DNA from: a virus
IMG/VR virus record: IMGVR_UViG_3300040801_005898
Length of the DNA stretch: 64,000 bases
Direction: 5' to 3' (one strand)
Shown here: in pieces, positions 1,068 through 64,000 of the stretch
Numbering within the stretch: position 1 is the first letter of the stretch
Layout: each line of letters begins with the position of its first letter
Position numbers and translations under genes: made by a program
Notes under the pieces: generated by a model
The model's input: only the letters and a program-made list of their open reading frames with translations
Told to the model about the DNA's origin: nothing
The model's database searches: none

Positions 1068-4000
1068 ATGTTAGTTCTAAGAGAAGACGCGCAAAAGATA
1101 ATAACTGAATCTCAAATCAAAAGGATGACAGAGTTACTGCTTTCCTCTAAGGATTTTTACGATGAAGATGTCAAAATTTTGGAATTTGCGATTAATGATA
1201 ATGGTTCTATGTCAGGAAACTTTAAAGACTTGGACAATAACCGGGTTTTTGAGTTTGCTATAAATGGTCAAGATATTAGCTATAAACCTAGAATTAAAGG
1301 GCGTAGAGATTCTAGTAATTGGGACGACAATCGACTTTTGCTTCAATGGGAGGTTGAGTCTAAAATTTATCTTAAGCGGTTTCCAGAATCGCGGTTTGAT
1401 GCTCGTAAAAAGCGGGGCAAGGTAAAGAAGAAGCCAAAGTGTTCTGGTATTAGTTATAACTGCGGCAAACGGTGTTTGGGAGTTGATTTGAACTGCCGGG
1501 TTAGCCAACGGAATAATAAAAGCAAACAGCGTTTAGAAAACCTTCAAGAGCTAGCTAAAAAGCATAAAGCTGGTGAGGTAGGGCCGTTTTATGCTAACAG
1601 CGGGAAAAAGGCTAAAGAAGTTGAGGAGATGAGGAAGTCTGCTTATGAAGAGTCTATTAAGCGCAGGGAAACGGCAAGGGCTAAACGGAGGAGCAAGAAA
1701 GAGTCTGAAAATATTCAGCGTGGTAAAGAATCGGTAAAGAAGCGGAAGGCAGAAAAGGATAAAGGTAGCGATCGCGATCTATCTGAAAATGCTAAACGGG
1801 GCAAGAAATTAGTCGAAAAGAAAAAGGTTGAAAAATCGGCTAATGCTGAACCGTCTTCGCAAAGTCAACTTGTAAAAAATACTTCTTCAAAATCGTCATT
1901 ATCAACATCTAAAATTAAATCTAAAAGAGTCAAAAATGGTTTCCCTATGGTGACAACCAATATGATTGAAAATGACGCTAGAGGAAGATTTTTTAGAAGG
2001 TGGGAAAGAGAACAGCCTAAAATCCCTGGCAAAAAAGGTGATTTTACTGTTTTGAATGAAGACGGTAAAAGAAAAGAAATTTCTGGCGATAAATATGCCG
2101 ATTTGCTTGGCGTTGCTAAAAATGAACAGTCAGACGAAAATCCAGAATTACCTTATCATGTATATTCTCTTAAAACTGGTGAAAAGGTAATGAGAAAATT
2201 CGGTGACGAAAAAGATGCTGGATATGCTGCATCTTTGTTAATCAACTCTGGGATTGATCTTAAAAAAGAGCAATTTACGAATCGAGAAGAGGATGCTATA
2301 GTTGGCATTGCAAACGCTGTTAAAAATAAACAATATGATTTGTCGCTTGATGATGTTCGGCATGGAAGATTTCAGCAAGAAACTACCAAGGAAAGCAAAG
2401 AAGTCCAAAAGCAAAAGATAGAATCTAAACTGGCTGATACTAAAAAAAGGCTAGTATCTATTCGTGAAAAAGAACAAGATGGTATCCCCCGTGGAGTTTG
2501 GGATGTAGAAGACAAGCATATTTTGGAATACGATTTACGATATTACGAAGAACAATCAGCTAAACTTAACAGCCAAATTGTTGAACAAAGCGATCGCCCC
2601 ACAGAGAAACTATCCCCCACTGCGCAAAAAGGTAAAGAAGCGGTTAAAGAATGGAAAAAATCTAATAAAAAAGAACTAACTAATAAAAAGATATATCAAG
2701 AGCCTCCCAAGAAAACAATAGATGACCTTGAGAACAAACAGAAAGAAGGCGCAAGATACACTTCTAAAAATCCGTTTACACAAAAAGACAGCACGGAACT
2801 TCAACGCAGCAAAGATGGTTTTTCTTTTAATCCAAAAAATTCAGAATCTAAGTTGTGGAATACGTTAGAGAAGTTGGGAAATGATGAATGGCGAAAAGAT
2901 TTTGATAACGCCCCTAACGTGCCGCTAAAAAATGGATATGTTAAAAATAAAGGGTCTAATACAGGTGGGGGACCTGGTAAGTTGGGCAGAAAATTAAATA
3001 TTGCAAATACCAATCCAGAACGTTGGAAAGGAGGTGGAGGATATAGAATTGTAGATGCAAATACTCACTATGACCTTGATTTTAAAAGCAAGAAGTTATC
3101 TGATTTAAAACCAATATTAAACTATCTTGAGTCTTTGGATATTGACTTTGATAATCCAGAAAGATTAGCTTTTGGAAACCGCAATTTAGAAGGGGAAATT
3201 TTAAGAAAATTAGCAGCCAATTTAGAAGCAGATGATTTAGAGAGAAAAAAACAAAGCGATCGCTCCATAGAAACATTGTCTCCCACTGCGCAAAAAGGTA
3301 AAAAAGCGGTTGAAGAATGGAAAAAATCTAAAAAAAAAGAGATAACTAAAGGTGGAGAATATCAAGAACCAGCGACATCTGTAACAATTAAAAATCAAAG
3401 CGATTCTAAATATATTGCAGACATCAAAGTATTAAACCCTAAAAATGAGAAAATATTTAAACCTGCCGCATTTGAAGACCCAAACGACCCCAGATATACT
3501 CCCAAGCTAACCAGCAAGGAAATTAAAGACTTAAAAATCAAACTCTCAGAGGAAAAACAAGGGCTGACAGGAGGAGAACTTGCCAGGGTTAAATCTCATC
3601 GTACTTTGGGGGCAAATGGTGATTATATCAAGGCAAAAGGTGTCTCAAATCCTAAATTGCTGTTTAGTTCGGTAGATGAAAAGGAAAAAGCGATCGCGGA
3701 CTACCAGAATAATCTCGACAAAACCATCAGAGAGAAGACAGGTAAGCCATTCGATGAGAACTCCGACAACCACAATTATTGGCGGTATATAGCGCAGATA
3801 ACCCGTGATGAGCAGATAAAGACTTTTGAGGATGATTCTAATGATGTTGCGATAGAAGCCAGTCCCATCACGGTTAAGGCAGCAAAAAAACTGGTTGGCA
3901 GAAAAGATAACATGGTAGAAAGGGGTGGAAATGAACAGTTAAGCGTAAGTGGATGGAATGAATTTAATAAGATTGTGGCTAAAGACAACAATCTACCCAC

Positions 4001-5846
4001 ACCTTTGAAGCAAGAGTTGATAAATAATGCCAAGGAAGGAAAGGTTACTAATGCCCAAGGAAAGGCTGAGTACATTGCAGATATCAAATCTCTTGATAAG
4101 GATGAACAGAAACAGTTTGAACCCCACCCTTATTTTGACAATCCAGACGACCCCAGATATACTCCCAAGCTAACCCGCAAGGAAATTGACAACCTAAATA
4201 TCTCAGTCTTAGATGCAAAAGAAGGCATAGATAGTACCGAGTTTGCTCATGTAAAAGTCGATCGCACGCTAGGAGGAAATGGCGATTATAGTTATGCGTC
4301 CAGCAGAAATGCTGTCCAAAATCCTAAGTTACTATTCAGTTCGGTAGATGAGAAGGAAAAAGCGATCGCGGATTACCAGAATAATCTCGACAAAACCATC
4401 AGAGAGAAGACAGGTAAGCCGTTTGATGAGAGCTCCAATAACCGAGATTATTGGCGGTACATGGCGCAGATAGCACGGGACGAACAGATAAAGACTTTTG
4501 AGAATGAGTCTGTCAGTGTTGCCAAAGAAGCTAATCCTTACATGATTAAAGCAGCAGAAAAGCTGGTTGGCAATGAATACAACATGAGAGAATTTAAAGG
4601 CAAAAAAGAGCTAACCGAACGTGGATGGAAAGAGTTTTACGAGATTGTTCAAAAAGACCAGAATTTACCCAAACCCTTGAAGCAAGAGTTGATAAATAAC
4701 GCTACAGGAGGAAAGAGAGGTGGTGTCCAATCAGGAGAGGTAGAAAACCGTTTAACAAACAAAACTAAAACTTCTGAGAAATTAGAAAAGTTGGCATTAA
4801 ACCGAATTGAAAAAACAGAAAGTCAGTTAGAGGAAATAGCCGATCGCAAGCAAAACACTTCTCGCCGCGCTAACAAGGCTGACTATGCTAGAGAAAAGGT
4901 TACTAGGACTAAAACTAATGCTGAAACCTTGGTTAAGCTTGCTAGAGCAAACAAGGAAAATCGACTTTCCTCCGGGTTAAAAAATGTTTCCCAACTCAAA
5001 CAGTTAGAGGTAGTTGAGGAATTAGACCAGACTTTTGACAGTAATTTTACTTCAATTCATAATAGGTTAGAAGATGCTTTTGATGATACTGAGAAAAAGC
5101 AGGTTTTGAGTCAAATAGAAGTTAAAGATGTAAACGATTTGATTGGTGTTCTTAAGGAATATCGGCAGTACAAAAAAGATGCTCCAACTATGAGCAAAGT
5201 TGAAAGTATGGAGAGGGAACTAATAGGCAATAAGAATGCTGGTATTGACTATTTCCCCACTCCCCCCAAAGTGGCAAATAGAGTAGTAGAAAAAGCTGAT
5301 ATTAAACCGGGAATGACAGTATTAGAACCTAGCGCGGGAAACGGGGCGATCGCTGATGCAGTCCGACAATCTACTCCCTCTGCCAGGATTGCTACCAATG
5401 AGATTAGCGGTCAGCTTGTGGACATCTTGGAAGCAAAAGGATATAGCAACACTCAAAAAGACTTTTTGTCAATGCCTACAGGCCAAAAGTACGATCGCAT
5501 TGTAATGAATCCACCGTTTGGAAAAGGTACTGCCGGCACAGACCAAGCACATATCCGCCACGCTTATGAGATGCTTTCTCCTAATGGCCGTTTGGTTGCT
5601 GTTGCTTCTGAGGGGAGTTTTTCTCGGAGCGATCGCAATGCCCGAGACTTTCAGCAGTGGGTTGAGAGCATAGGTGGTGAGGTTGAAAAAGTGGAACCGG
5701 GAGCGTTTAAGTCTTCCATCAATCCCACTGGCACGGCAACCCGGATCGTGACTATTAATAAGGGCGATCGCCGCGACTCAGAAAATATCCGCCACGGTAA
5801 AATATTGGTTAAGGCATATCAAATGCAGAAAATGTTGAGAAGTTGA
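1068..5846 (+). CDS. large polyvalent protein (1592 aa) with C-terminal N6-adenine-type DNA methyltransferase domain
   Basis: C-terminal motifs YFPTP, VLEPSAGNGAI and VMNPPF; N-terminal leader plus Cys cluster (C-x6-CG-x2-C-x6-C); internal repeats. Confidence 0.85.
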   Translation: MLVLREDAQKIITESQIKRMTELLLSSKDFYDEDVKILEFAINDNGSMSGNFKDLDNNRVFEFAINGQDISYKPRIKGRRDSSNWDDNRLLLQWEVESKIYLKRFPESRFDARKKRGKVKKKPKCSGISYNCGKRCLGVDLNCRVSQRNNKSKQRLENLQELAKKHKAGEVGPFYANSGKKAKEVEEMRKSAYEESIKRRETARAKRRSKKESENIQRGKESVKKRKAEKDKGSDRDLSENAKRGKKLVEKKKVEKSANAEPSSQSQLVKNTSSKSSLSTSKIKSKRVKNGFPMVTTNMIENDARGRFFRRWEREQPKIPGKKGDFTVLNEDGKRKEISGDKYADLLGVAKNEQSDENPELPYHVYSLKTGEKVMRKFGDEKDAGYAASLLINSGIDLKKEQFTNREEDAIVGIANAVKNKQYDLSLDDVRHGRFQQETTKESKEVQKQKIESKLADTKKRLVSIREKEQDGIPRGVWDVEDKHILEYDLRYYEEQSAKLNSQIVEQSDRPTEKLSPTAQKGKEAVKEWKKSNKKELTNKKIYQEPPKKTIDDLENKQKEGARYTSKNPFTQKDSTELQRSKDGFSFNPKNSESKLWNTLEKLGNDEWRKDFDNAPNVPLKNGYVKNKGSNTGGGPGKLGRKLNIANTNPERWKGGGGYRIVDANTHYDLDFKSKKLSDLKPILNYLESLDIDFDNPERLAFGNRNLEGEILRKLAANLEADDLERKKQSDRSIETLSPTAQKGKKAVEEWKKSKKKEITKGGEYQEPATSVTIKNQSDSKYIADIKVLNPKNEKIFKPAAFEDPNDPRYTPKLTSKEIKDLKIKLSEEKQGLTGGELARVKSHRTLGANGDYIKAKGVSNPKLLFSSVDEKEKAIADYQNNLDKTIREKTGKPFDENSDNHNYWRYIAQITRDEQIKTFEDDSNDVAIEASPITVKAAKKLVGRKDNMVERGGNEQLSVSGWNEFNKIVAKDNNLPTPLKQELINNAKEGKVTNAQGKAEYIADIKSLDKDEQKQFEPHPYFDNPDDPRYTPKLTRKEIDNLNISVLDAKEGIDSTEFAHVKVDRTLGGNGDYSYASSRNAVQNPKLLFSSVDEKEKAIADYQNNLDKTIREKTGKPFDESSNNRDYWRYMAQIARDEQIKTFENESVSVAKEANPYMIKAAEKLVGNEYNMREFKGKKELTERGWKEFYEIVQKDQNLPKPLKQELINNATGGKRGGVQSGEVENRLTNKTKTSEKLEKLALNRIEKTESQLEEIADRKQNTSRRANKADYAREKVTRTKTNAETLVKLARANKENRLSSGLKNVSQLKQLEVVEELDQTFDSNFTSIHNRLEDAFDDTEKKQVLSQIEVKDVNDLIGVLKEYRQYKKDAPTMSKVESMERELIGNKNAGIDYFPTPPKVANRVVEKADIKPGMTVLEPSAGNGAIADAVRQSTPSARIATNEISGQLVDILEAKGYSNTQKDFLSMPTGQKYDRIVMNPPFGKGTAGTDQAHIRHAYEMLSPNGRLVAVASEGSFSRSDRNARDFQQWVESIGGEVEKVEPGAFKSSINPTGTATRIVTINKGDRRDSENIRHGKILVKAYQMQKMLRS
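1767..3340 (+). repeat. three dispersed linker repeats within the 1592-aa ORF, each starting at a HIP1 site
   Basis: SDRDLSENAKRGKKLVEKKK (~1767), SDRPTEKLSPTAQKGKEAVKEWKKS (~2589), SDRSIETLSPTAQKGKKAVEEWKKS (~3255). Confidence 0.8.
3411..4700 (+). repeat. tandem ~210-aa domain duplication
   Basis: YIADIK...DPRYTPKLT...NPKLLFSSVDEKEKAIADYQNNLDKTIREKTGKPFDE...PLKQELINNA occurs at ~3411-4030 and ~4071-4700. Confidence 0.95.
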
Positions 5847-10284: not shown

Positions 10285-10611
10285 ATGAAAAACAAATTAG
10301 AACCATTAACCATGAACAAAAAACAAATTGTCGGAAAAACAATTAAATGGACTTCCGGGGGAAAACAAAAAACCGGAACCGTTATGGGAATAATTCTCCC
10401 AAATCACGATGTGTTGATAGATTTCCCGTTTTTAAATGATGTACCTACAGCAAGAATCACAAGGCTCGGCTCTTTGACTAGCATCAATAATAGGTTGCTA
10501 GTCAAAGTAACTACGCCCACAGGACTAGCAGCCTATTATGGCCCGCTAGTCCCAGTAGAAAATGTCAAGCAAAATATCTGGCTACCAAAAAATGCTGAAG
10601 TTATAAAGTAG
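10285..10611 (+). CDS. hypothetical protein (SH3/KOW-like beta pattern)
   Basis: IVGKTIKWTSGGKQKTGTVMGI pattern. Confidence 0.65.
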   Translation: MKNKLEPLTMNKKQIVGKTIKWTSGGKQKTGTVMGIILPNHDVLIDFPFLNDVPTARITRLGSLTSINNRLLVKVTTPTGLAAYYGPLVPVENVKQNIWLPKNAEVIK

Positions 10612-10686
10612 CCTAAAATCAAAAATGGCGGGGCAAATAGTTAAGAGGCCCCGCCATGTCCCTGTATGTTGGAAGGAGACAATAAC

Positions 10687-10887
10687 ATGATAGCTGAAAA
10701 AATTGTGGAAATGTCAATGTCTCCACATGAATTTTTGATAAAACACCAACTCAGTCAAGAAAAGATGGCTGAGTTAATAGGGGTAAATACCCGGACAGTC
10801 CAAAGATGGCTGTCTGGTGAAAGAAACCCCAGCACGATAACCTTGAAGATGTTGGCAATGACCGACAGGTTACTGGAACTAGAATAA
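10687..10887 (+). CDS. XRE/Cro-family HTH regulator
   Basis: LSQEKMAELIGVNTRTVQRWLSGERNP; GGAG RBS upstream. Confidence 0.9.
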   Translation: MIAEKIVEMSMSPHEFLIKHQLSQEKMAELIGVNTRTVQRWLSGERNPSTITLKMLAMTDRLLELE

Positions 10888-10908
10888 CCTTTATCATAAA
10901 CCTTTTTT

Positions 10909-10938
10909 AAAACCACGGTCTTAGGCCGTGGTTTTTTT
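10909..10938 (+). terminator. intrinsic terminator
   Basis: AAAACCACGG/CCGTGGTTTT stem plus T-tract. Confidence 0.85.
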
Positions 10939-10965
10939 ATTTTTGCCAAACTATTCTTAATACAT

Positions 10966-11003
10966 AGCGTTACTTAAGTTGTTTGAACGACTTAAGTAAC
11001 GCT
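10966..11003. promoter_or_regulatory. 14-bp inverted repeat upstream of the transfer-like operon; candidate operator or cis site
   Basis: AGCGTTACTTAAGT / ACTTAAGTAACGCT; the AGTAACG motif recurs at ~11009 and ~11134. Confidence 0.6.
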
Positions 11004-11108
11004 TTAGAAAGTAACGTTAATTCGGGTGAATCAAGTTTCGACAAATGAAGCGATCGCTCTCAAACATCCCATCTTTGGTTTGTTTCGAGTCAGAAAAACT
11101 GATTTTGC

Positions 11109-11558
11109 TTGCTTGGTAAACCGAAACGAGTAGTAACGTTAACAACCATGACACAAGTAGTAGAAGTTATCACTAATCGCGGCCACAGCATTCGGGCAAC
11201 TCATTTAAAAAAGATAGGCCCGGTGGCTATGCAAAAAGTGGACTTGTGGAGAAAGTTTCGACAGATAAAATCCAATTTTTCCCGGCCCACCTTAAATAGA
11301 TGGTGCGATCGTTTTTTGAAACACGATCCTATCTACAATGCTGCCTACTTCTTAATGGCATCAAATGAAAAATTCTCAAGGCTTGATGGACAAGGGGTGA
11401 AATTGCACCCTTATCAAGTCCAAAGCCTAACAGGACTTTTCTTTTGGAGCCTAAAAACTGAACGAGTTGGGGAGAAAGAATTTTTGCTTTTTCTCCAGCA
11501 AAACCCAGTGGATTATCGAATTTACCCAGACTTGTCTCAGTTAATGGAGGAAAGATGA
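11109..11558 (+). CDS. hypothetical, possible DNA-binding protein
   Basis: ORF overlapping the next gene by ATGA. Confidence 0.6.
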   Translation: MLGKPKRVVTLTTMTQVVEVITNRGHSIRATHLKKIGPVAMQKVDLWRKFRQIKSNFSRPTLNRWCDRFLKHDPIYNAAYFLMASNEKFSRLDGQGVKLHPYQVQSLTGLFFWSLKTERVGEKEFLLFLQQNPVDYRIYPDLSQLMEER

Positions 11559-12139
11559 ACGCTCAAGATTTAGCAGATGAATTAAACTTGCCGGCAGCAA
11601 CAATTACTGCCGCAGTAAAAAGTGCAAATGCGGACCCTAGCAATTTCGACAAAAAAATAGGCGATCGCGTCCGTTCGATGGTTGCGCAAACAGCAGCACA
11701 GCAGAACAAAGACGTGCCCAAGAAAATAGCTGCCGGCACTCAGACTAAAAAGGAGAAAAAGGAGGAGGACTCGTCAGGCGACAAAACAGAAATAGAGAAT
11801 TATCAGGATGCTGTATTTGCAATCCGAGAACGCCAGACACAGCAAAAGTTGGATCGAGTGCGTGAGCGAGGCTCTTTTGTTGGCTCTCTACTGGCAGTTG
11901 AGGAGTTTAAAGCGGAATTGGAAGGCTATGCCGTAACTCGCACCGAGTTAGCTCAATTGTTGACAACCCGAGACAATGAGTTTGTCAATCAATTACTGGG
12001 GGACTCACTAAAGCCTTCCCAACTTCTTCCTGCTGTTTACCACGAAAGTCATCAGGATCAGGATTCAAAACCTGCAAATCTGTTGGAAGCATGGGAACAA
12101 AAAGCCGGGCTGAACGGGCTGAATTGGAATTACGAATAG
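11555..12139 (+). CDS. N-terminal HTH plus coiled-coil protein
   Basis: MNAQDLADELNLPAATITAAVKS (MerR/IF2N-like HTH pattern) followed by a coiled coil. Confidence 0.7.
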   Translation: MNAQDLADELNLPAATITAAVKSANADPSNFDKKIGDRVRSMVAQTAAQQNKDVPKKIAAGTQTKKEKKEEDSSGDKTEIENYQDAVFAIRERQTQQKLDRVRERGSFVGSLLAVEEFKAELEGYAVTRTELAQLLTTRDNEFVNQLLGDSLKPSQLLPAVYHESHQDQDSKPANLLEAWEQKAGLNGLNWNYE

Positions 12140-12270
12140 AAATAGAAAAGTTAAAAGTTGTTGCTGCTGAGAAACAAAAACCTTGGTGGCAAAAACTGAC
12201 AAGACAAATTAAAGACTTCAGGGGGCATGACTCCTCTGAAGCAATGACCGAAATTATGCGAGGACTATGA
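12091..12270 (+). CDS. small protein (59 aa, not in ORF track)
   Basis: Manual translation MGTKSRAERAELELRIEIEKLKVVAAEKQKPWWQKLTRQIKDF...GL*. Confidence 0.45.
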   Translation: MGTKSRAERAELELRIEIEKLKVVAAEKQKPWWQKLTRQIKDFRGHDSSEAMTEIMRGL

Positions 12271-12327
12271 TATGCAAAGATTTTTGCGATCGCGCATTTG
12301 GAGTTGTGAATATCTGATGAGGCTAGC

Positions 12328-12972
12328 ATGATTACAGACCAAAATCCAATCAAAGCACCACCGTGGCTGATGACTTCAGTCTGGCTTGGCTCTGGAATGC
12401 TGTTTTTATTTTTAGCAGTTGGAGTATTGGGAAATTTATTTGCCCCCAGAGGGGCGGTTACTCAGTTGCCAGAAACTTTAACTAACACTCCGGCAACCGT
12501 AGAACCAACATCTCCGGTGGAAAAACAAACCAGGGAGATTACTCTGGAAGTATTGCGGACTCAATGCCAATACAACCTTAAAGGAGAAATTGCAGAAGTT
12601 AATGAGGTACTCGTTACGATGCGAGGAATCCGGTGGTTGATTTACGCACAAAAAGAAGCACCACCACTGGGGCTGACAACTTACGAGTTTCTGATGGAAA
12701 ATTATGTGGCGACTGTAGAAAAAATATATGACATTAGTAATTACGGAAGTTTCAACCCATTACCAAAGCAGTCTCGGGAACTCCGAGATTTGTTAGGAAC
12801 AGTGGAAGACATAACCTGGGCATTAACTTCTGGGACTAATTTCAGACATCCCAACGTTTCGTTGGTGGAACTAAACACCCAACTACAAGACTGTCAAGCT
12901 GCGGCAAGAACGCATAATAGCGTTTTGCAAGACGATATGGGCAGAGCAGGATTTGGAGGTCAACTGCCATGA
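12328..12972 (+). CDS. single-pass membrane protein with helical C-domain
   Basis: Hydrophobic stretch VWLGSGMLFLFLAVGVLGNLF near the N-terminus. Confidence 0.75.
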   Translation: MITDQNPIKAPPWLMTSVWLGSGMLFLFLAVGVLGNLFAPRGAVTQLPETLTNTPATVEPTSPVEKQTREITLEVLRTQCQYNLKGEIAEVNEVLVTMRGIRWLIYAQKEAPPLGLTTYEFLMENYVATVEKIYDISNYGSFNPLPKQSRELRDLLGTVEDITWALTSGTNFRHPNVSLVELNTQLQDCQAAARTHNSVLQDDMGRAGFGGQLP

Positions 12973-14201
12973 ACAAAGTTGAGGGAGCGATCGCTCTTGC
13001 CGCTTCTATCACGGGAGTAATTTCTCTGAGCAACCTGCAAGCTCCAAGACAATGCCAAGTTATATGGCAAGGAGAAACTCCCGCTATATATTCCCCACCT
13101 CCTGATAAAACTGCTGGTATTGTAGCGGCAATCGGATTTGTGGCTTTGGGCGTTATGGGAGCGCGATCGCTCAAGAACCCAGAAACAACTCTCCCTTCTG
13201 CAACAAATATTCAATCGCAGAGATTAGGCCCCTCCAATCTACCCGCAATAACACAAGACTCAAATCAAGAAAATGTAGAAAACATTCAACCCCAAAACAA
13301 AAATTCAAGTATAGAATTTGAGTCAGAAAAACATCAGGAATTATGGAGAAAGCTAACATCTCCTGGTTACGAATGGTTGCTACAATTGTTGTTAACTAAA
13401 CCGTTGTTAGTTTGGGGCGAACAATGCAGCGGTAAAACTCAATTTTCTAGTTTTTTAGCAATGCTAAGAATGTTGTTTTTCAAGCATAAAGTTAGCGTTG
13501 CCGATCCGCACTCTCACCAAAACGAATGGCCTAGCAGTTTTGAGGTTTACGGAGCATCTTATAATTACGGCCAAGTAAACAATAGATTGACTGCTTATTA
13601 CCAGAGGTTAAAAAATGGGAATATGCCTCATACCTCCATTTGGGATGAGGTAACTAATTACCAAGAGTGTTGCGACGAAAAACTAGCGGGGCGCTTTCTC
13701 AAATCAATTTTAAGCGATGTTCGCAAACCGCCGGAATTTCCAATCTTGTTAAGCCATTCTAATACTTTAAGTTCTTTAGGTGGCGGGAAAGGTGGGGTTA
13801 AAACAATGCAAGTTCGCGGTCTAGTAGAGGTAAACTTACGAGCAAAAAGAGACGAATTGGGAAACTTAAAACCTGCTTTGAAAGGCTCTATAACTGGACT
13901 CCAATTAGACGAAAAAGGCGATGCTATAACTCAACAAATTGAGTTAGAACCGTGGATGCAGTATTCTTGGTTGGAAAGAGAGTTTGGGGAGATTTCCAAA
14001 ATGCCCGAATTGAATGTAGAAAAACAGCAACTTGAAACAGCATGGAACCAACAGGAGAAACAGCGAGTTAAACAACTTGCTAAAGAAGGATTTACTCAGA
14101 CTGAAATAATTAAAGAAGTTTGGGGCGTTTCTCCTGGTGAAAGTTCTCGATATCAAGATGCTGTTGAGAAATTCAAAACTTACAATATTGAGGAGGATTA
14201 A
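12969..14201 (+). CDS. membrane-anchored P-loop ATPase (FtsK/HerA/VirD4-like) with C-terminal wHTH-like region
   Basis: Two N-terminal hydrophobic segments, Walker A GEQCSGKT, Walker B IWDE, C-terminal GFTQTEIIKEVWGV. Confidence 0.8.
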   Translation: MNKVEGAIALAASITGVISLSNLQAPRQCQVIWQGETPAIYSPPPDKTAGIVAAIGFVALGVMGARSLKNPETTLPSATNIQSQRLGPSNLPAITQDSNQENVENIQPQNKNSSIEFESEKHQELWRKLTSPGYEWLLQLLLTKPLLVWGEQCSGKTQFSSFLAMLRMLFFKHKVSVADPHSHQNEWPSSFEVYGASYNYGQVNNRLTAYYQRLKNGNMPHTSIWDEVTNYQECCDEKLAGRFLKSILSDVRKPPEFPILLSHSNTLSSLGGGKGGVKTMQVRGLVEVNLRAKRDELGNLKPALKGSITGLQLDEKGDAITQQIELEPWMQYSWLEREFGEISKMPELNVEKQQLETAWNQQEKQRVKQLAKEGFTQTEIIKEVWGVSPGESSRYQDAVEKFKTYNIEED

Positions 14202-14204
14202 CTC

Positions 14205-14456
14205 GTGGGAGAAATTTGGCGTTTTTTGTGGGGTAAACTGTCGTCAGGAGACCCTATTTCAATAGCTGTTGCTGCCATGCTCATCATTCTAACGGGCAGC
14301 TCGGTAGTTGCCTTTGCGCATGGCATGGATGGTCGATGTCGGGTTAATAAATTTGACATTAATGACGCGGCAGATTACGGATGCAGCACTGGGTTGTTTT
14401 TAAGAGGTTTCTTTGAAAACATTCCCACATTTGATTCGGTTAAAAACCAACCTTAA
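14205..14456 (+). CDS. small membrane protein
   Basis: TM segment ISIAVAAMLIILTGSSVVAFA. Confidence 0.6.
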   Translation: MGEIWRFLWGKLSSGDPISIAVAAMLIILTGSSVVAFAHGMDGRCRVNKFDINDAADYGCSTGLFLRGFFENIPTFDSVKNQP

Positions 14457-14469
14457 AAAAAGAGGAAAA

Positions 14470-14658
14470 ATGACAAATAAAGAAGATTTTCAAACACCAT
14501 TAAGTAAGTTGGAAGAAGCATCTATCAAAATTTTGATAGGCATGATGCAATATGAAAACTTCGGGACTCTCCGAGACTACTATGCTTCGCAGTCTGTTTT
14601 AGCGGCAAAAAGGCTACTTAAAGAATGCGATCGCGTATCTCAACAACAAGATGAATAA
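14470..14658 (+). CDS. small hypothetical protein
   Basis: ATG with GAGG RBS. Confidence 0.55.
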   Translation: MTNKEDFQTPLSKLEEASIKILIGMMQYENFGTLRDYYASQSVLAAKRLLKECDRVSQQQDE

Positions 14659-14663
14659 AGCTG

Positions 14664-15203
14664 ATGAATAAAGCTTTTGAAATGTTCGTAAATTTCTGTG
14701 TTGTCATAGTTTTACTTTTTCTGATAACAGGCATTAGTGCAGGAGCATTAGAAAATAAGCCTTTTGCTCCGGGCCCCGCCCTTGCTTTTATTCTGAGATT
14801 AACTGGCAGGATAGAACTGGCAACCGATTTGGCAGCAGGTCGCAAAGAACCAAGCGATCGCCCCTTTACCGGATTAATCCAAGACCGCGCTGCCGATATT
14901 CAGAAAGAAACTGACAATTTTGTGGAAAAGTTGCCAAAGACTGAAGATGGCAAAGTTGAAACTCGCGCTTTAAATTGTCCCCAAGGTGCTTATGCTGCAA
15001 ACGTTCCCCAGGTATCGGCAGACAAAATAGGTTTAGCACAAGGACAATCTCTAAGGTTTCTGTGGGATGTTCAAAAAATCTGGGGAAATCCTCACTGCGT
15101 GGCAAGGAAAGAATGGCGGTATTTTTTTGATAACGGAAAGGTGGCGATCGCTACTGAGTCGGGAGGTAAGGTAAATGTCAAAATTGTCGGAATTAACTTC
15201 TAA
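14664..15203 (+). CDS. secreted or membrane-anchored protein
   Basis: N-terminal signal or TM segment FVNFCVVIVLLFLITGISAGA. Confidence 0.7.
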   Translation: MNKAFEMFVNFCVVIVLLFLITGISAGALENKPFAPGPALAFILRLTGRIELATDLAAGRKEPSDRPFTGLIQDRAADIQKETDNFVEKLPKTEDGKVETRALNCPQGAYAANVPQVSADKIGLAQGQSLRFLWDVQKIWGNPHCVARKEWRYFFDNGKVAIATESGGKVNVKIVGINF

Positions 15204-15900
15204 AACTGCTTTGCTAGTTCTGGAACGCATCGAGCAAAAACTGGATGAGGTAAAAGAACGAGAAGAGCAAAAAGAAATGCGGCAAACGATAACTTTATTC
15301 TATTGGGGCATATTTATTTGCTGCCTTTGGATTGCTGTTGTGGGGCCAGCTTTTTACGGAGTTAAAAATGCTGTTGCCAATTTTCCCAACGGGGTCAATA
15401 TTGAATGGAATTTATTTCCCAGAATCAATTGGCAAGGCATCGACTTACCTCCTTTTACTTCCAGCAAGAAAACCGAGATGCCCAAGCCCGGCAATTTTTC
15501 TAATCCAGTTCCTAATGCCAAAAGAATTAGCTCTCGTTTTGGCTACCGAAGTCATCCGGTGTTGGGAGGCCGCCGATTTCATAATGGAATAGATTTAGCA
15601 GCCCCTACCGGAACTCCAATATTGGCATCTTTGCCGGGAAAGGTTGTTGCTGCGGGTTGGTTATCAAATGCTTGTGGGAACGGGTTAAAAATTGAACATC
15701 CTAATAAATTTACTACTTCCTACTGCCACCTTGATAAAATTAATGTCAAAAAAGGAGTTTCTGTTAATATCAGTTCCACCCTTGGAACGGTAGGAAGCAC
15801 TGGCAGAAGTACGGGGCCGCATCTACATTTTACGGTTCGTAAGGATGGTAAACTTGTTAATCCTGAAACCTATTTTCGATTTGATTTAAAAGGGCAATAG
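15175..15900 (+). CDS. M23-family peptidoglycan endopeptidase with N-terminal TM anchor
   Basis: HNGIDLAAP (HxxxD), YCHL and STGPHLHF (HxH). Confidence 0.92.
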   Translation: MSKLSELTSKTALLVLERIEQKLDEVKEREEQKEMRQTITLFYWGIFICCLWIAVVGPAFYGVKNAVANFPNGVNIEWNLFPRINWQGIDLPPFTSSKKTEMPKPGNFSNPVPNAKRISSRFGYRSHPVLGGRRFHNGIDLAAPTGTPILASLPGKVVAAGWLSNACGNGLKIEHPNKFTTSYCHLDKINVKKGVSVNISSTLGTVGSTGRSTGPHLHFTVRKDGKLVNPETYFRFDLKGQ

Positions 15901-15901
15901 T

Positions 15902-16093
15902 ATGGCAGAAAACTGGATAGAAATCAATAAGGCGATCGCTAAATACGGAAGACAAATTATCAACGGCTGTACTGTCAAACATGATAGAGGTATAATTTAC
16001 ATTGACATCGATAGCGATCGAGGCAGCCTAGAAAACAATGTTTTTCACCAAGCGGAATCAAAACTTAACTCACAGGAGAAACGACATGATTAA
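15902..16093 (+). CDS. small hypothetical protein
   Basis: Tightly packed ORF in the operon. Confidence 0.55.
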   Translation: MAENWIEINKAIAKYGRQIINGCTVKHDRGIIYIDIDSDRGSLENNVFHQAESKLNSQEKRHD

Positions 16094-16232
16094 CATTCCT
16101 AGAGCCTCATGGCGAGAACTGACCCGGCTAATTATTAAAATGTCAGTTATTCCAGAGAAACAAAACCAACTAATCCAAGAATGCTTGGACTTATTGGAGG
16201 CAATAGAACGCGATAATATGCACCAAGATTAA
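16086..16232 (+). CDS. small hypothetical protein
   Basis: ATG with AGGAG RBS; overlaps the previous stop. Confidence 0.5.
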   Translation: MINIPRASWRELTRLIIKMSVIPEKQNQLIQECLDLLEAIERDNMHQD

Positions 16233-16233
16233 T

Positions 16234-16845
16234 ATGGAACGTATTAAGCAAGTTGCACTTTTATGCTGTTCTGTGGGAGTCATTATTGGCTCCCAGTCTT
16301 TCCAAGATTATTGGAAGACAGCGATCGCTCCCCATCTACCAGAAATCCCTATCAAGGTAATGGGCACGACAGAACAAGCATCTAACGCTGCTGCTGGTGA
16401 TTTTGACAAGGCATATCAAATTATCCGTAAGGTTGAGGGGGGTTATTCCAAACACCCAGACGACACCGGAGGAGAGACGTACAAAGGAATCACTATAGCT
16501 GTTGCAAAAAAATGGGGATATGACAGACCGCAAGATTTGAGCGATACCAAAATCAAACAAATTTACCTTAAAGATTACTGGGAAAAGTCAGGAGCTAACA
16601 ACCACCCTTGGCCGCTAAATTTAGCGATTTTCAATAGTTATGTTAATAGCGGGCGTAAATGGAAAATCCCTGCTACCGGCACTCCCCAAGAAAAAGCGCT
16701 TGCATACCTTCAGCAGCAAACAGATTTTTACGATCGCATCATTACTAACGATCCTAGTCAAAGGGTTTTTAGTCGCGGATGGAAAAACCGCAGCAAAATT
16801 ATCAAAGAAGCAATTAGAGGAACTAAAACACAGAGGTATTTATGA
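16234..16845 (+). CDS. glycosyl hydrolase family 108 lysozyme with N-terminal signal or anchor
   Basis: EGGYSKHPDDTGGETYKGIT, YLKDYWE, F.RGWKNR. Confidence 0.9.
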   Translation: MERIKQVALLCCSVGVIIGSQSFQDYWKTAIAPHLPEIPIKVMGTTEQASNAAAGDFDKAYQIIRKVEGGYSKHPDDTGGETYKGITIAVAKKWGYDRPQDLSDTKIKQIYLKDYWEKSGANNHPWPLNLAIFNSYVNSGRKWKIPATGTPQEKALAYLQQQTDFYDRIITNDPSQRVFSRGWKNRSKIIKEAIRGTKTQRYL

Positions 16846-17024
16846 ACCCAATTCAACTTTTTACTGCCGCGATCGCTGTTGTTACATTTATTAGCACCTT
16901 GCTGATAAACCCGGTTTTTGGCAAAGAGGAAAAACCCATTGTTCCTGGCAAAGGCAGGGAGGGAACAAGCAACGAATATTCGTTGCAACAAACAAGCAAT
17001 CAGCCTCAAAAACAGCTATACTGA
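16842..17024 (+). CDS. small secreted or membrane peptide
   Basis: Signal-like N-terminus; ATGA overlap with the lysozyme gene. Confidence 0.55.
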   Translation: MNPIQLFTAAIAVVTFISTLLINPVFGKEEKPIVPGKGREGTSNEYSLQQTSNQPQKQLY

Positions 17025-17091
17025 AAGGGCGAAACTCCTCCAAAGAGTCGCGGGATATCCGCAAAGCAACATTATTAGGAGACAAGACATT

Positions 17092-17310
17092 ATGAAATTA
17101 CCATTTCAAATTGGCGATCGCGTGATAGATAAAATAATAAAAGATCGCTCAAGCTATGGCACTGTTGTCAGCGTCAAAGATAAAATCGAAGTTCTGTGGG
17201 ATACTGGCGGACAATCAAGTTATCCCGCAAAAGAACTGCAACTCGTCCCGACAGCGGATAATGCAAACTGGAAACACTGCAACAGTCTAAAAGAGTTTCC
17301 CCGTATTTAA
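17092..17310 (+). CDS. small SH3/KOW-like protein
   Basis: FQIGDRV...GTVVSV...IEVLWDTG; AGGAG RBS upstream. Confidence 0.65.
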   Translation: MKLPFQIGDRVIDKIIKDRSSYGTVVSVKDKIEVLWDTGGQSSYPAKELQLVPTADNANWKHCNSLKEFPRI

Positions 17311-17364
17311 GCTTAATCAAGCTTTGGTACAGATATCATATTAATTGAAATCCTCCACTTTTAT

Positions 17365-17395
17365 ATCCTCGGTCTTTCGCCGGGGATTTTTTTTG
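17365..17395 (+). terminator. intrinsic terminator
   Basis: ATCCTCGG/CCGGGGAT stem plus T-tract. Confidence 0.75.
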
Positions 17396-17469
17396 TTAAA
17401 ATATCTAATAGAGAGCAATCAAAATAACAGGAGTTTTTATGCTAAAATCTGAATACAAAGCAACCATTA

Positions 17470-17853
17470 GTGTATTTAATCATAAAAATTATTTTAACAG
17501 GAAAAATAGTCCCCAAGGCACGCCCTCGCTTTGGCAAGGGGAAATCCTACCTCCCTAAAAACTACCGCAACTGGAAAAATGGGTCTGTTTGTTACATGAT
17601 GGTATCCTTGCCCCCAGATTTTCAAACGTTTGAAAAGGCGATCGTTTCCATCAGATTCAAGGGGAACCATAACAGAAATGCAGACCTTGATAATCTCAGC
17701 GGGGCAATCTTGGATGCGCTAGTAGATGCGGGAATTTTGATAGACGATCGCCTCTCTGTAGTTCAAGAATTGCACGTTTATTTTGAGGATTCAAAAATAC
17801 CCCCAACCACAGAAATTAGTCTAAGGGAAGTTTTTACACCGGACAAAAAATAA
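17470..17853 (+). CDS. rusA: RusA-family Holliday junction resolvase
   Basis: PKARPRF...YRNWK...DLDNLSGAILDAL..G...DD. Confidence 0.88.
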   Translation: MYLIIKIILTGKIVPKARPRFGKGKSYLPKNYRNWKNGSVCYMMVSLPPDFQTFEKAIVSIRFKGNHNRNADLDNLSGAILDALVDAGILIDDRLSVVQELHVYFEDSKIPPTTEISLREVFTPDKK

Positions 17854-49500: not shown

Positions 49501-52500
49501 CAGCACTGGCAACAATTTTTCTAATGTCAATGTAAGATTAAAGAAAGTATGTTGCACGAACCGGACAATTGCTGCATCCCTAGCAAAACTAGTGGCTAGC
49601 AACCCTAATGTCACTATAACTGCAGTCACCGCACCACTGAATCCAGTTGTCAGAAAATCTTTTAGCGCTACTAAAGACTCTCCAAATGCTTTTAAGTTAG
49701 ACCCTAAAAACTCCATTAATTCTGTTTGAGAGGTTAAAGCATTAAAAGCTTTGAATAACCCATAAATAGTTCCTGTCAGCAAAACAGTTTTTAGTGCCCA
49801 AGCTCTAAACATTGCTGAAATATTTCTAACTACTATATTCAGTAAAGAAGTATTTTGCGTCGCCGCAATATTTGCAGTTACATAATTTTGAAGCGCAAAA
49901 CTAATACTATTAATGGCTGCTTGTCCAGATGCTAGAGTTCTTGGATTAAGACCTAATGAGGCCAGTCGGTTATTAGCCATAGCTCCTAACCCCTGAATAC
50001 CGATGGGTAATGCCCCGATCGCTTTGGTTATTAGGTTTAATGCGCCAGCGCCCCGGATAATTCCTCCTAACCCCGCACCTTGGATAGCTAGTCCTGAGAT
50101 GGCTGGCAAAACTGCTGTTAATGCCGGTGCTAATGGTCCAAGAACTCCTAAAAATCGAGTTAAGGCAGTTGTCATCCCTGGAATAAATGCCATGTTTTTC
50201 CCTAATGTTAAGAATGCTGCCGCACCGCCACCTAAGTTTTTAGACAGAAATCCAAATTGATTAATTAATGGCAAGGTTCGCACTGCTAGCAAGCTCATCA
50301 ACCCACCCACTCCTGGCAAAACTCTAGTCAACATCCCAAACATTCCAGAAAATATCGATATTCCTGATGTTAGCACTTTAAACTGAATTGCTGCCTTGAT
50401 CAATGGAGAGCCAAGTCCAGTAACAAAACCTACTAATGTTTTAAAAGCGTCAATAAATGGCTGTAATATTCTTAATGTATTTTTAACTGAATTTCTGACT
50501 ATTTCTATAATATTTGCGATCGATTCCAATACAAATAAACCTGTTTCTCCACCGCCTTTGCCTACTATCACTGAAACCAGTTCTTTGATAGTGTCGATTA
50601 CTCCTTTAAACGCTCGGTTAGTAACAGCAGCAACTTTATGGGCAAACTCCATTATTTTCTGCTGAGAACCAACCAAATAAGTGTAAAGTTTATCTAGCTC
50701 TGCTCTGAAAGTCTCAAATAAAGGTCGTCCGCTAATTCTCTGAACCTCTTGGAAAAAATCAAGAATATTTGAAGTTAAGCCAGAAACGTTTTTAGATGCA
50801 ATTTCCTGTCCTTGAACCAAAGATGACAATCTTTCTTGAAGGTTCTCTATTAGTTTTCCTTCCAATTTCCATTTTTTGATTGTGGGGTTTCTTACATCTA
50901 AAGTCTTAGCAAGTAAAGAATCGTTGGTGATGTCACCCATTAGTATCGACCTGATTTCTTGGGTTGCTTGGTTAGCAGGCAAGTTGATAGTCGAAAGACC
51001 TGAAGCAAAAGAAACGGTTAAATCTATGGCATCTTGTAAAGACGCTCCTATTCCTCCCATCATGCCAGTTACGATAGAGAAAGGTTCTATCAAGTCGGAA
51101 CTTGTAAAGGTCGCTAGGTCAAGCGATCGCTTTCTTAACGATTCTATAGAACGCTCAATTAATGGTTTTGTCTGAGCAAAAGAATCCAACCCATTAATTT
51201 GTCTGCCTGAAGTCTTGTCAACTAGCTTGTTTGTTGCGATAATTCCAGATTGAATACGAAGTATCTGTTGCTCCAACTCAGTATTTTGTCTGATAACTGT
51301 AGCGATCGGGTTTTGTTGGGCAAACATTGTGATAATTGAGAATCCTTGCTGTATCATAAACAGCGCGTTCCCTAAGTTCATAAAGCTATTAACGACTCTA
51401 CCAACTACCGTCATTTTCTGCCAAAATGCTCCTGCGGCATCGGTGGCCATGACAAGATTGTTTGCTACGTTACTAACAAAACCCGTGACTTGAGCAAATC
51501 TTTGTGGAACTTGCTGTATTCTTTGGGCAGTACCTAATATCTGATTGTCAAAAGCATCAAAAAATGGGTAAATTGACTCCATAAATCCGCTTAAAATACC
51601 TTTCCCTACCGATGCTCCTATGGTTCGTCCGCTTTGCTTAAATATATCTGCGATCGCGCCATTAGTTTGTACATTCCACGTTTCTACTTGCTCGACAATT
51701 TTTAGCCCTTTGGCAAATTGCGGGAATTGTGATAATTGAGAAAAGGCATTTTTAGCAACATTTAAAGTTTTAGTAAATCCACTTTGATAATTTTTTGTGG
51801 TGGTGTCGATTTCTTTATTAATAATACTTCTTACCATACTCATTTCTTTTTGAGTAAGGGTTGCATCATTTCTTAACCTTTTCACTAATGCCGTTAATGG
51901 GCTAGCCTTCTCTGCACCACTGGCATATTGAAAATTAAATTGCTGTAGTGCGCTTAGTCTTTTATTCAATTTAGCGATCGTATCATTAACACCTCTTTGT
52001 TCGCTACGGCTACCAATATTTCTTTGAGATTCTAAAAGCCTGATTTGTTCGCTAACTGCCTGATAATACTGTCTGCTATGTTTTCCTAGATTACTGTCAA
52101 TTAATGCCTCCATAAGTTCGGGTTCAGCACTTTTGCCCAACCGCTTAAAAATCATTTTTTGTTTGTCCCTAGAAAAACTTTTTCTACCTAGCGACAGTAA
52201 ATATTCTTGTTGGGTACTATCATCTAGGGTAGGTCGCAATAGTTGTGCTTCCATAAATCGTTTTTTATCAGCACGAAGAAAATTATCGCCTGTTAGTTCT
52301 TGCCGCCATCTTTTGAGCCTTTCTGATTCCCTTGCGGCTCTATCAATTCCTTTTTGCAATTGTTTTATCTCTGATTCAATACCAGAACGTTGTCTAGTGA
52401 TTTCTTCATCAGGCATATCAAAAAGGTTTGCTCTATCTCTTTTTATTTGCTGAAGTTCATTGTCTGTTTGCCTAAATTTAGCTTGAGCATCTATTCTTTT

Positions 52501-54921: not shown

Positions 54922-55068
54922 TTTTGTTAAATATTGTAATTCTTATTAGTTTGATGGCAGTGACAAAGAATGCAAATACAATCTGGCCCACTTTCCCGTT
55001 TTTTGCGCATTGTTTCGCTTATCTTTTACATTTCCCACATTTCCCACATTTTAGCAGCTACAATCAAA

Positions 55069-63207: not shown

Positions 63208-64000
63208 TTAATAATATTTGCTGTTTAAAACACCTTTTAGCAACTGACCGCTGTTATTTAAAGCTTCGTTTAGCCACAAATAAAATGCTGCTTCGGCAAA
63301 ATGTAAAGCAACAAACAAATCGTCATTTTTTTGCTTTCCTCGTTGCCATTTACCATCGCGTTTTTCTCTATTGGTCAAATGTCTGAAAGGCGAGTTTTCC
63401 GAATTATTTGCTCTCCAAACATCCCAAGTTTGCGGCAATCGATAAAGAGGCATTCCGTTCATGTCTCGTAATAAGAAGCCATACAGCACTGCGTCAAAAA
63501 ATTTAGAACTACGCAACCCGAAACAAGGATATTCAATGCCTCCATCTCGAACAATAATTTTTTTAAGAGGCTCTAATTGAGTATCTTTTTGATCCGCCAA
63601 TTGTAAATTTTTGACTTGACGGCATAAACCCATAGCAGATTCGCGATCTGGTTCGTTATCGATAAACCCGCCTTGCACCTTAAAGAAAGCGAACGCTTCT
63701 ACAATCTCGCTTCTAGATATGTCCCCGCAAAACTTTACCTCTTTAACGGCAGACTCAACCAAATCTGGGATACTTTTATCTCGGGTATTTTTTGGCAAAT
63801 AATAGGACACGACTGCCATCCAGTCACAATTTCTACCGCAATCTATCCCCACAAGGGTAGCGTCAGGGGACCGTTGCGGCACGGGTAAGCCGATGCACTC
63901 TTCTATATTAGCAAAAGTCAAACTAACTCGCAAATTCTCGGAAGGATGGCCCAACATCTGCTGCTGCCAGTCGGTAGAGTCCAAGTATTCTATGCCCGCT
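63208..64000 (-). CDS. terL: terminase large subunit (GpA-like), C-terminal nuclease part; start lies beyond the window
   Basis: VGIDCGR, FIDNEPD, RHLT.RE...KW......NDDLFVA; frame open to the window edge. Confidence 0.7.
   Translation of the reverse strand, partial: AGIEYLDSTDWQQQMLGHPSENLRVSLTFANIEECIGLPVPQRSPDATLVGIDCGRNCDWMAVVSYYLPKNTRDKSIPDLVESAVKEVKFCGDISRSEIVEAFAFFKVQGGFIDNEPDRESAMGLCRQVKNLQLADQKDTQLEPLKKIIVRDGGIEYPCFGLRSSKFFDAVLYGFLLRDMNGMPLYRLPQTWDVWRANNSENSPFRHLTNREKRDGKWQRGKQKNDDLFVALHFAEAAFYLWLNEALNNSGQLLKGVLNSKYY

Follow-up and report, generated by a model that had tools for sequence, protein, structure and literature searches.

Why should a phage operon join a membrane-anchored ATPase to two peptidoglycan hydrolases? 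This question is raised by a 64,000-nucleotide (nt) stretch of viral DNA, the IMG/VR record IMGVR_UViG_3300040801_005898 (hereafter the window), in which about 15 genes on the plus strand, packed tightly or overlapping, form an operon that extends from 11109/11148 to 17310 and ends at an intrinsic terminator (17365-17387, plus strand; 9-bp stem with 5 GC pairs, followed by a T run). The first-pass annotation had likened the locus to the TraB/Spd DNA-transfer systems of Streptomyces and had proposed relaxase-free spread along or between cyanobacterial filaments, with hydrolases that open the septal wall instead of lysing the cell. Our follow-up analysis indicates that the operon contains a module which is probably common to cyanophages, small integrated elements and plasmids of filamentous cyanobacteria, and which is probably more than the published lysis cassette. 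As to its role, we tentatively favour, at a little short of an even chance, a plasmid-derived envelope translocation module, probably for DNA, the hydrolases of which double as lysins.

The core of the module has a constant order: a bitopic membrane protein, an ATPase with two transmembrane (TM) segments, small membrane proteins, a TM-anchored M23 endopeptidase and an exported muramidase. In the window these are represented, all on the plus strand, by the genes for a 214-amino-acid (aa) bitopic protein (12328-12972; TM at residues 20-38), a 410-aa P-loop ATPase (12969-14201), the start of which overlaps the preceding gene by 4 nt, a 241-aa M23 protein (15175-15900) and a 203-aa GH108 protein (16234-16845). 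Three metagenomic relatives (L007-L009) are collinear with the operon at 35-64% identity, the bitopic protein being 36-37% identical. The best phage matches of both hydrolases are found side by side in the Planktothrix phage PaV-LD (NC_016564.1), in which the order is ORF129 (TM), ORF128 (bitopic), ORF127 (a TM-ATPase annotated as FtsK/SpoIIIE), ORF126, ORF125 (TM), ORF124 (TM), ORF123 (TM-M23), ORF122 (GH108) and a Holliday-junction resolvase. Thus, PaV-LD ORF129L-ORF122L resembles the window operon in its order from TM proteins via the TM-ATPase to TM-M23, GH108 and the resolvase, but differs from it in that the two ATPases are related at the profile level only, while the window ATPase carries a C-terminal helix-turn-helix (HTH) and is part of a distinct family with 606 representatives. 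BLAST detects no similarity between ORF127 and the window ATPase; hhalign aligns ORF127 to the family with a probability of 91% (E 1e-6) over the Walker A motif, a shared VADP motif and the Walker B motif. The PaV-LD order is retained in 13 IMG/VR contigs, and outside the module the window and PaV-LD have few proteins in common.

The layout was also found with two further ATPase subgroups, in L069 with GH108 in the last position and an integrase nearby, and in L068 with an SLT domain replacing GH108. The bitopic protein at the position of the 214-aa protein is present in PaV-LD (ORF128), in L068 and L069, and in plasmids of Oscillatoria. In the genome G216, two copies of an ATPase-M23-GH108 element of approximately 12 kb, with 91-95% identical DNA, lie 67 kb apart on one contig. 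No homologues of the structural genes of the window or of PaV-LD were found within 100 kb of these copies. PaV-LD TerL, Terminase_6N and Phage_capsid had no counterpart in G216 either, which is a weak negative, since Pfam shows no terminase or capsid family in the window open reading frames (ORFs) as well. The two copies are located at C9:3431-15474 and 70665-81761 (L072-L076), and one of them is interrupted by a 450-aa ORF on the opposite strand. As a separate observation, the muramidase genes of L068 (3941-4621) and L069 (10381-11067) share an N-terminal stretch that is 48% identical over 42 residues, followed by the SLT domain in the one and the GH108 domain in the other; judged from these sequences, this looks like a swap of the catalytic domain behind a conserved N-terminal region.

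Synteny on cyanobacterial plasmids that lack capsid genes, which the first-pass annotation had suggested looking for, does exist for this type of module. PaV-LD ORF127 and the window GH108 protein both match pOSCIL6304.01 and pOSCIL6304.02 of Oscillatoria acuminata PCC 6304. On both plasmids ParM is followed by two small genes and then by the genes for a bitopic protein of 354-364 aa, a TM-ATPase of 478-481 aa, two small TM proteins and a final protein of 375-379 aa. In pOSCIL6304.02 this last protein is a fusion of an N-terminal TM segment, M23 and GH108, and in pOSCIL6304.01 it is annotated as a GH108 family protein. Order and orientation agree with those in the window, from the bitopic protein via the TM-ATPase and two small TM proteins to the anchored M23 and GH108 domains; differences from the window are the fusion of M23 with GH108, an ATPase of the PaV-LD type (26% identical to ORF127, E 6.5e-45) and the location of the operon after ParM. 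No capsid, portal or terminase gene is annotated on either plasmid, and pOSCIL6304.02 contains no homologues of the structural genes of the window or of PaV-LD. The plasmids further carry ParA, recombinases and a DUF5906 primase-helicase, and a MOBP relaxase is annotated on pOSCIL6304.02, away from the module. A search for AAA_10/VirB4 gave no match at E <= 1 in PaV-LD or in three plasmids, these two among them. The fused, TM-anchored M23-GH108 protein of 375 aa is encoded at L077:7312-8439 and the 379-aa protein annotated as GH108 family at L078:10585-11724, while in the phages the two enzymes are encoded by separate, adjacent genes.

Since the hydrolases are fused on plasmids, since the order is kept despite the replacement of one muramidase type by another, and since the genes are translationally coupled along the entire operon, we suggest that the ATPase and the hydrolases work together.

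The 410-aa ATPase had been described as a membrane-anchored FtsK/HerA-like protein with a C-terminal region like a winged HTH. It contains the Walker A motif GEQCSGKT and the Walker B motif IWDE; K156 and E227 are invariant in both alignments of its family, and G150 and D226 are invariant too in the alignment A1. The AlphaFold models (mean pLDDT 77.8 over the full length and 92.7 in the model of residues 115-410) predict two N-terminal hydrophobic helices with a hairpin between them, a disordered linker of 50 residues, a RecA-like core, and a long C-terminal helix followed by two further helices. The latter form a three-helix HTH without beta strands and without a wing. When the ATPase core was ranked with VIA-align, the top eight rows were all members of the FtsK-HerA group, namely TcpA (Z 14.7), FtsK (13.1), EccC (12.8, 12.8, 12.5 and 12.5), DndH-C (12.5) and VirB4 (12.4), and the model of the whole protein gave the same fold order as the 115-410 core model. 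The top match in Foldseek was 6jd5 (TM-score 0.43), which clusters with the EccC/EssC ATPase domains in VIA-align, and many RecA rows came next. At the sequence level, the ATPase matches no family in Pfam, NCBIfam or PADLOC, its sole family match being an unannotated PHROG. It gave no match to the FtsK/SpoIIIE model PF01580, for which a member of its family reaches 14 bits and the ATPases of PaV-LD and the plasmids 10-13 bits against a cut-off of 24, and searches of PDB sequences with two profiles returned P-loop matches only.

Of the earlier description, the membrane-anchored ATPase stands, by its two N-terminal helices, its Walker motifs and its position in the fold ranking; a wing is not predicted, and no FtsK_SpoIIIE model is reached. 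The term FtsK/HerA-like holds at the level of the modelled fold, by a small margin, without sequence-level family membership. The predicted topology and fold class are those of membrane translocases of the TcpA/FtsK/TraB type, and the topology, the best fold match, which is a conjugative coupling protein, and the HTH tail point to DNA as a likely substrate. When residues 115-410 of the ATPase were modelled in complex with residues 1-62 of the M23 protein (its cytoplasmic N-terminus plus TM), the prediction scored 0.00 and gave no verdict. A relation of the ATPase to the DUF3854 replication protein of the window was also considered, and the two proteins turned out to be unrelated.

In a profile search, the family of the window ATPase comprised 606 representatives (counted at 50% identity) at E <= 0.001, 99 of which were found at E <= 1e-30. 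A hydrophobic segment precedes Walker A in 111 of the 140 family members having this motif. Weak matches among 40 distant members were to DUF87/HerA (8 members, best E 3e-6), AAA_10 (3 members) and a fused GIY-YIG nuclease domain (4 members; alignment A2), and the GIY-YIG matches suggest, as far as domain composition goes, that some members of the family at least have a role related to DNA. The family is present in 36 of 401 sampled cyanobacterial genomes, all 36 with a size of 4.1-8.5 Mb. All named carriers (Calothrix, Nostoc, Scytonema, Okeania, Microcoleaceae, Oscillatoriales, Floridaenema, Aulosira, Symplocastrum and Leptolyngbyaceae) are filamentous, in line with the setting in cyanobacterial filaments that had been assumed before. 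The ATPase found no match in the phage collection by tblastn, and its alignment retrieved no relative from IMG/VR.

Many close homologues, with a core that is 63-80% identical, lack the HTH and are encoded by lone chromosomal genes in several copies per genome. For example, G001 and G002 (L003, L006, L013) have 3-5 lone copies per genome without an HTH tail; those in L003 and L006 lie among housekeeping genes, and in L006 a small ORF is located just upstream. Other close homologues adjoin ParM, ParAB, Rep_1 with a protelomerase, or DnaB. On four plasmid-like replicons a ParM/ALP gene is followed in one orientation by a few small genes and then by a membrane ATPase (L002:2994-9206, L029:394-4285, L077:9190-13334 and L078:5718-9837).

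Both hydrolases of the operon were confirmed. The M23 domain was detected with a Pfam E value of 2.1e-32 and retains the HxxxD and HxH motifs, and the GH108 domain was detected with an E value of 3e-22 and retains EGGY; a weak PG_binding_3 tail follows. The assumption that both proteins are anchored at the N-terminus is correct for M23, which has a cytoplasmic N-terminal helix and one strong TM segment (residues 39-57). In the GH108 protein the corresponding stretch is short, only weakly hydrophobic and under the threshold of the hydropathy scan; being rich in Gly, Ser and Cys, it is like a signal or a signal-arrest-release (SAR) sequence more than a firm anchor. The M23 protein is 33.6% identical to PaV-LD ORF123 over 88% of its length, and the acidic cytoplasmic helix and the TM segment are kept between the two (alignment A3). 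The GH108 protein is 49% identical to ORF122, annotated as endolysin, and PHROG and NCBIfam give endolysin-type names to both domains.

These relationships bear on the proposal that the hydrolases do not serve lysis. According to Meng et al. 2022 (PMC9096620), PaV-LD ORF123 (M23 with TM) and ORF124 (a TM protein, called holin) inhibit the growth of E. coli and Synechocystis and damage their envelopes. The two proteins are synergistic, and their lytic effects depend on their TM domains (PMC9096620). No other peptidoglycan hydrolase was detected among the scanned ORFs of the window, which does not comprise the whole phage genome, as a contig of 106,896 bases is on record; in the complete genome of PaV-LD, no hydrolase other than ORF122 and ORF123 is annotated. 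The argument that the hydrolases do not serve lysis is therefore not supported, and by analogy with PaV-LD the hydrolase end of the operon is very likely the lysis function of the phage. The same applies to the statement that the only holin-like gene is located about 46 kb away. Because a 179-aa protein with an N-terminal TM segment (14664-15203, plus strand; TM at residues 11-29; 48% identical in L007-L009) occupies the ORF124 position, the operon does contain candidate holin-like genes; the correspondence is one of position only, with no sequence match to ORF124. Two more TM proteins, of 83 aa (14205-14456, plus strand; TM at residues 20-38; 37-40% identical in L007-L009) and 60 aa (16842-17024, plus strand; TM at residues 4-22), are encoded in the operon as well. 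On the other hand, toxicity in a heterologous host would be expected of any exported wall hydrolase, and for this reason the experiments with ORF123 and ORF124 leave room for another primary role. That study covers only these two genes of the PaV-LD module, as lysis genes. Homologues of M23 and GH108 in Ma-LMM01 and Pam1 were considered as further cases of the module and rejected, as they correspond to a baseplate lysin and an ordinary endolysin, with no annotated ATPase gene adjacent.

Which of the known systems does the module resemble? In TcpA, N-terminal TM helices precede the motor, and the Tcp locus encodes a peptidoglycan hydrolase (TcpG). A glycosidase paired with a peptidase on a membrane anchor is typical of the hydrolases of Gram-positive conjugation (CwlT, PrgK, TcpG), and this feature has its counterpart here in TM-M23 together with the exported GH108 protein. 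TcpA of the Clostridium perfringens plasmid pCW3 (PDB 6o1x) is the best fold match of the window ATPase (Z 14.7 over 193 residues, root-mean-square deviation 3.7), but the sequence identity is approximately 10% and there is no match to a family model. Furthermore, no VirB4-like TcpF, VirB6-like TcpH or relaxase was found among the scanned ORFs of the window.

TraB systems are not known to include dedicated hydrolases as a defining component. The TraB/Spd systems of Streptomyces (PMC4447253) share with the window operon a host that forms filaments, one membrane-anchored FtsK-like ATPase with a predicted DNA-binding tail, small membrane proteins and a short repeated motif nearby, and likewise lack a relaxase and a type IV secretion system (T4SS). 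Indeed, no relaxase and no VirB4/AAA_10 protein was detected among the scanned window ORFs, as the first-pass annotation had stated. In contrast to TraB, the window ATPase has no FtsK domain at the sequence level, and its HTH has no predicted wing. Where TraB acts with a C-terminal winged HTH on repeated 8-bp clt sites, we found three helices without strands and a 9-mer that occurs four times upstream of the operon.

If the operon encodes an envelope translocation module, the ATPase would form a ring motor in the cytoplasmic membrane, most likely handling DNA, and local cleavage of peptide cross-links and glycan strands by the two tethered hydrolases would open the wall. The phage would use these hydrolases and the 179-aa TM protein for lysis as well, and the XRE-type regulator encoded upstream, together with an inverted-repeat operator, would control the operon. 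A more specific proposal is that double-stranded phage or plasmid DNA is pumped from one cell into the next across the septa of cyanobacterial filaments, without relaxase or VirB4. ParM or replication would bring the DNA to the membrane, where the TcpA/FtsK-like ATPase would drive it to the other side, and the septal wall would be opened by the tethered M23 protein and muramidase. In this way the phage could move along the trichome without lysing cells, and would employ the same enzymes for lysis when infection ends. We regard this septal version as unlikely.

Several observations weigh against a translocation module. The closer homologues of the window ATPase, which are lone chromosomal genes or lie beside ParM, ParAB or Rep, have no hydrolase adjacent, and the plasmid ATPases that do stand in the conserved order are of the PaV-LD type and remote from that of the window (hhalign probability 62%, as compared to 91% for PaV-LD). 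The fold assignment has a small margin: RecA-type rows begin at Z 12.2 in VIA-align, the distance to RecA and PilT folds is just 1-3 Z units, and the TM-scores in Foldseek are about 0.4. The ATPase reaches no FtsK_SpoIIIE, type IV coupling protein (T4CP) or VirB4 model, relaxase, VirB4 and VirB6 were not found among the window ORFs scanned, and the conserved order could be inherited phage synteny. The last point is part of the view that the operon contains a plain phage lysis cassette, composed of a class III-like holin, TM-M23, exported GH108 and small TM accessories, with the ATPase and the upstream genes as unrelated neighbours. The lytic phenotypes of PaV-LD ORF123/124, the homology of the window enzymes to ORF123/122 and their endolysin-type names in PHROG and NCBIfam, the lack of another hydrolase found in the window or annotated in PaV-LD, and the many ATPase homologues without a nearby hydrolase are all in agreement with it. 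However, two plasmids for which no capsid genes are annotated, and to which a lysis cassette would be of no evident use, have the same order with the hydrolases fused, and the order survives the swap of the muramidase type. Moreover, the genes are translationally coupled through the operon, which is located among early or replication-type genes behind an XRE/operator region. Taking both sides together, we consider a plain lysis cassette somewhat unlikely.

A different question is whether the ATPase moves DNA at all. It could be a protein translocase or energiser similar to EssC/EccC of type VII secretion, which exports or activates the tethered hydrolases or small proteins of the module. EccC/EssC domains rank second to sixth, within 2 Z of TcpA, and provide the top match in Foldseek, and the operon encodes several small soluble proteins of 48-81 aa that could be substrates in such a scheme. 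But the window protein has one ATPase domain instead of three, no WXG- or LXG-type family was matched, the hydrolases have export signals of their own and the predicted C-terminal HTH suggests nucleic acid, so that we find this explanation very improbable. Alternatively, the ATPase could be a factor for episome maintenance or partition that acts with ParM or ParAB, tethering DNA to the membrane or clearing closing septa, while the hydrolases have a separate function. This would suit the homologues beside ParAB and those located after ParM, namely on pCAL6303.03, on L029 (a protelomerase element) and on the two Oscillatoria plasmids, and also the window itself, with its plasmid-type DUF3854 replication gene and no integrase. 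It leaves the tight, repeated coupling to hydrolases and their fusion on the plasmids unexplained, however, and lone chromosomal copies occur without partition genes; we judge a role in partition improbable.

The literature searched yielded no study of what an FtsK-like gene does in a cyanophage, and treated only ORF123/124, as lysis genes. New in the present analysis is a second, very divergent ATPase lineage in the same slot; its family, which is large and unnamed, includes lone chromosomal genes as well as plasmid genes linked to ParM. The HTH tail, the layout of XRE gene, terminator and operator, and the exchange of GH108 for SLT among relatives are also new. Should the module move DNA, cyanobacteria would have their first described conjugation-like or TraB-like system outside T4SS, which would also be the first such system on a tailed phage and would provide a route for the spread of phages and plasmids inside filaments, and the published lysis genes of PaV-LD would have to be read differently. 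Read conservatively, the data define a large uncharacterised family of membrane-anchored ATPases with 606 representatives and no Pfam model, all named carriers of which are filamentous cyanobacteria, their plasmids or their phages. The recurring neighbourhood of ATPase and hydrolases can be tested in fully sequenced strains, such as O. acuminata PCC 6304 with its plasmids, or PaV-LD with Planktothrix.

Upstream of the operon lies the gene of a 73-aa XRE-type HTH regulator (10666-10887, plus strand; 66 aa from the inner start used by gene callers; Pfam HTH_3 E 1.5e-9). The regulator is real, but it had been counted among the genes of the operon. Since a strong intrinsic terminator of its own (10909-10935, plus strand; 12-bp stem with 6 GC pairs, followed by a T run) is located directly 3' of the XRE gene, this gene is a unit separate from the operon. 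Between the two lies the inverted repeat that had been noted before as a 14-bp repeat. The repeat exists, but its arms (10966-10983 and 10986-11003) are 18 nt long and 94% complementary, with a spacer of 2 nt. From its sequence and position in front of the operon, the near-perfect repeat at 10966-11003 is a likely operator. It is identical in the variant contig L021, whereas the relatives L007 and L008 are without it. The motif AGTAACGYT occurs 5 times in the window, for the whole of which 0.68 copies are expected, and four of the copies fall within the 175 bases at 10966-11140; two more AGTAACGTT half-sites follow the repeat on the plus strand at 11010-11018 and 11132-11140. An XRE protein 43% identical to that of the window is encoded upstream of the module in two PaV-LD-like contigs.

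The operon, all genes of which are on the plus strand, starts with a basic protein of 136/149 aa (11109-11558; start used by gene callers at 11148; net charge +11) and an acidic 194-aa protein (11555-12139; 35% identical at the equivalent position in L007-L009). Neither of them has a match in Pfam, PHROG or NCBIfam, and their earlier labels as HTH/coiled-coil proteins were not confirmed. A 59-aa gene (12091-12270), which is a called gene in L021-L025, overlaps the 3' end of the 194-aa gene by 49 nt in another frame and is the better conserved of the two in L007-L009 (52-60% vs. 35% identity). Downstream of the ATPase gene, a 62-aa soluble protein (14470-14658; 81 aa in a longer frame from 14413) was also called with 62 aa in L021-L025. 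Two small ORFs (63 aa and 48/64 aa; 15902-16232) between the hydrolase genes have no match in L007/L008, and the last gene encodes a small soluble protein (17092-17310; 72 aa from an inner ATG in the ORF 16918-17310), called with 62-72 aa in L021 and L023. The presence of several single-pass membrane proteins was confirmed by one strong hydrophobic segment each in the 214-, 83-, 179-, 241- and 60-aa products. In the family scans the small TM proteins matched no family, PADLOC and NCBIfam yielded nothing for the unknown operon proteins and the ATPase, and a comparison of the 214-aa and 179-aa proteins with the ESM Atlas gave no usable lead.

The window as a whole is phage-like. It ends in a partial large terminase gene (63208-64000; phrog_675), and a 3804-aa protein is in its N-terminal part 32% identical to the region that carries the annotation tail tape measure protein in PaV-LD. 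Parts of a 1592-aa and a 642-aa protein (1068-5846 and 54970-56898) match the ORF078/ORF079 region of PaV-LD (52141-55524) with 25-38% identity; like the protein resembling a tape measure, they belong to the few shared outside the module. Further genes encode a tail-tip domain, RusA, a B12-type ribonucleotide reductase and a DUF3854 replication protein, which is of the plasmid type; no integrase was found among the window ORFs. The surroundings of the operon are early or replication-type genes, with the XRE/operator region upstream.

The DNA comes from cyanobacterial microbial mats. Because the assembled contigs of the metatranscriptomic runs X4 and X5 from a microbial mat contain 63% and 37%, respectively, of the words sampled from 10600-17400, the operon is probably transcribed in nature; in the runs X6-X9 just small shares of these words were recovered. 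Finally, in L021, a near-identical variant contig of the same phage, genes for Cas6 and a Cas3-like helicase-nuclease (16557-17509) directly follow an AAA gene, at a site that corresponds to the position after 23048 of the window. They may represent a phage-borne CRISPR-Cas module present in some variants only, and at this position the window has a PAPS-reductase gene instead.

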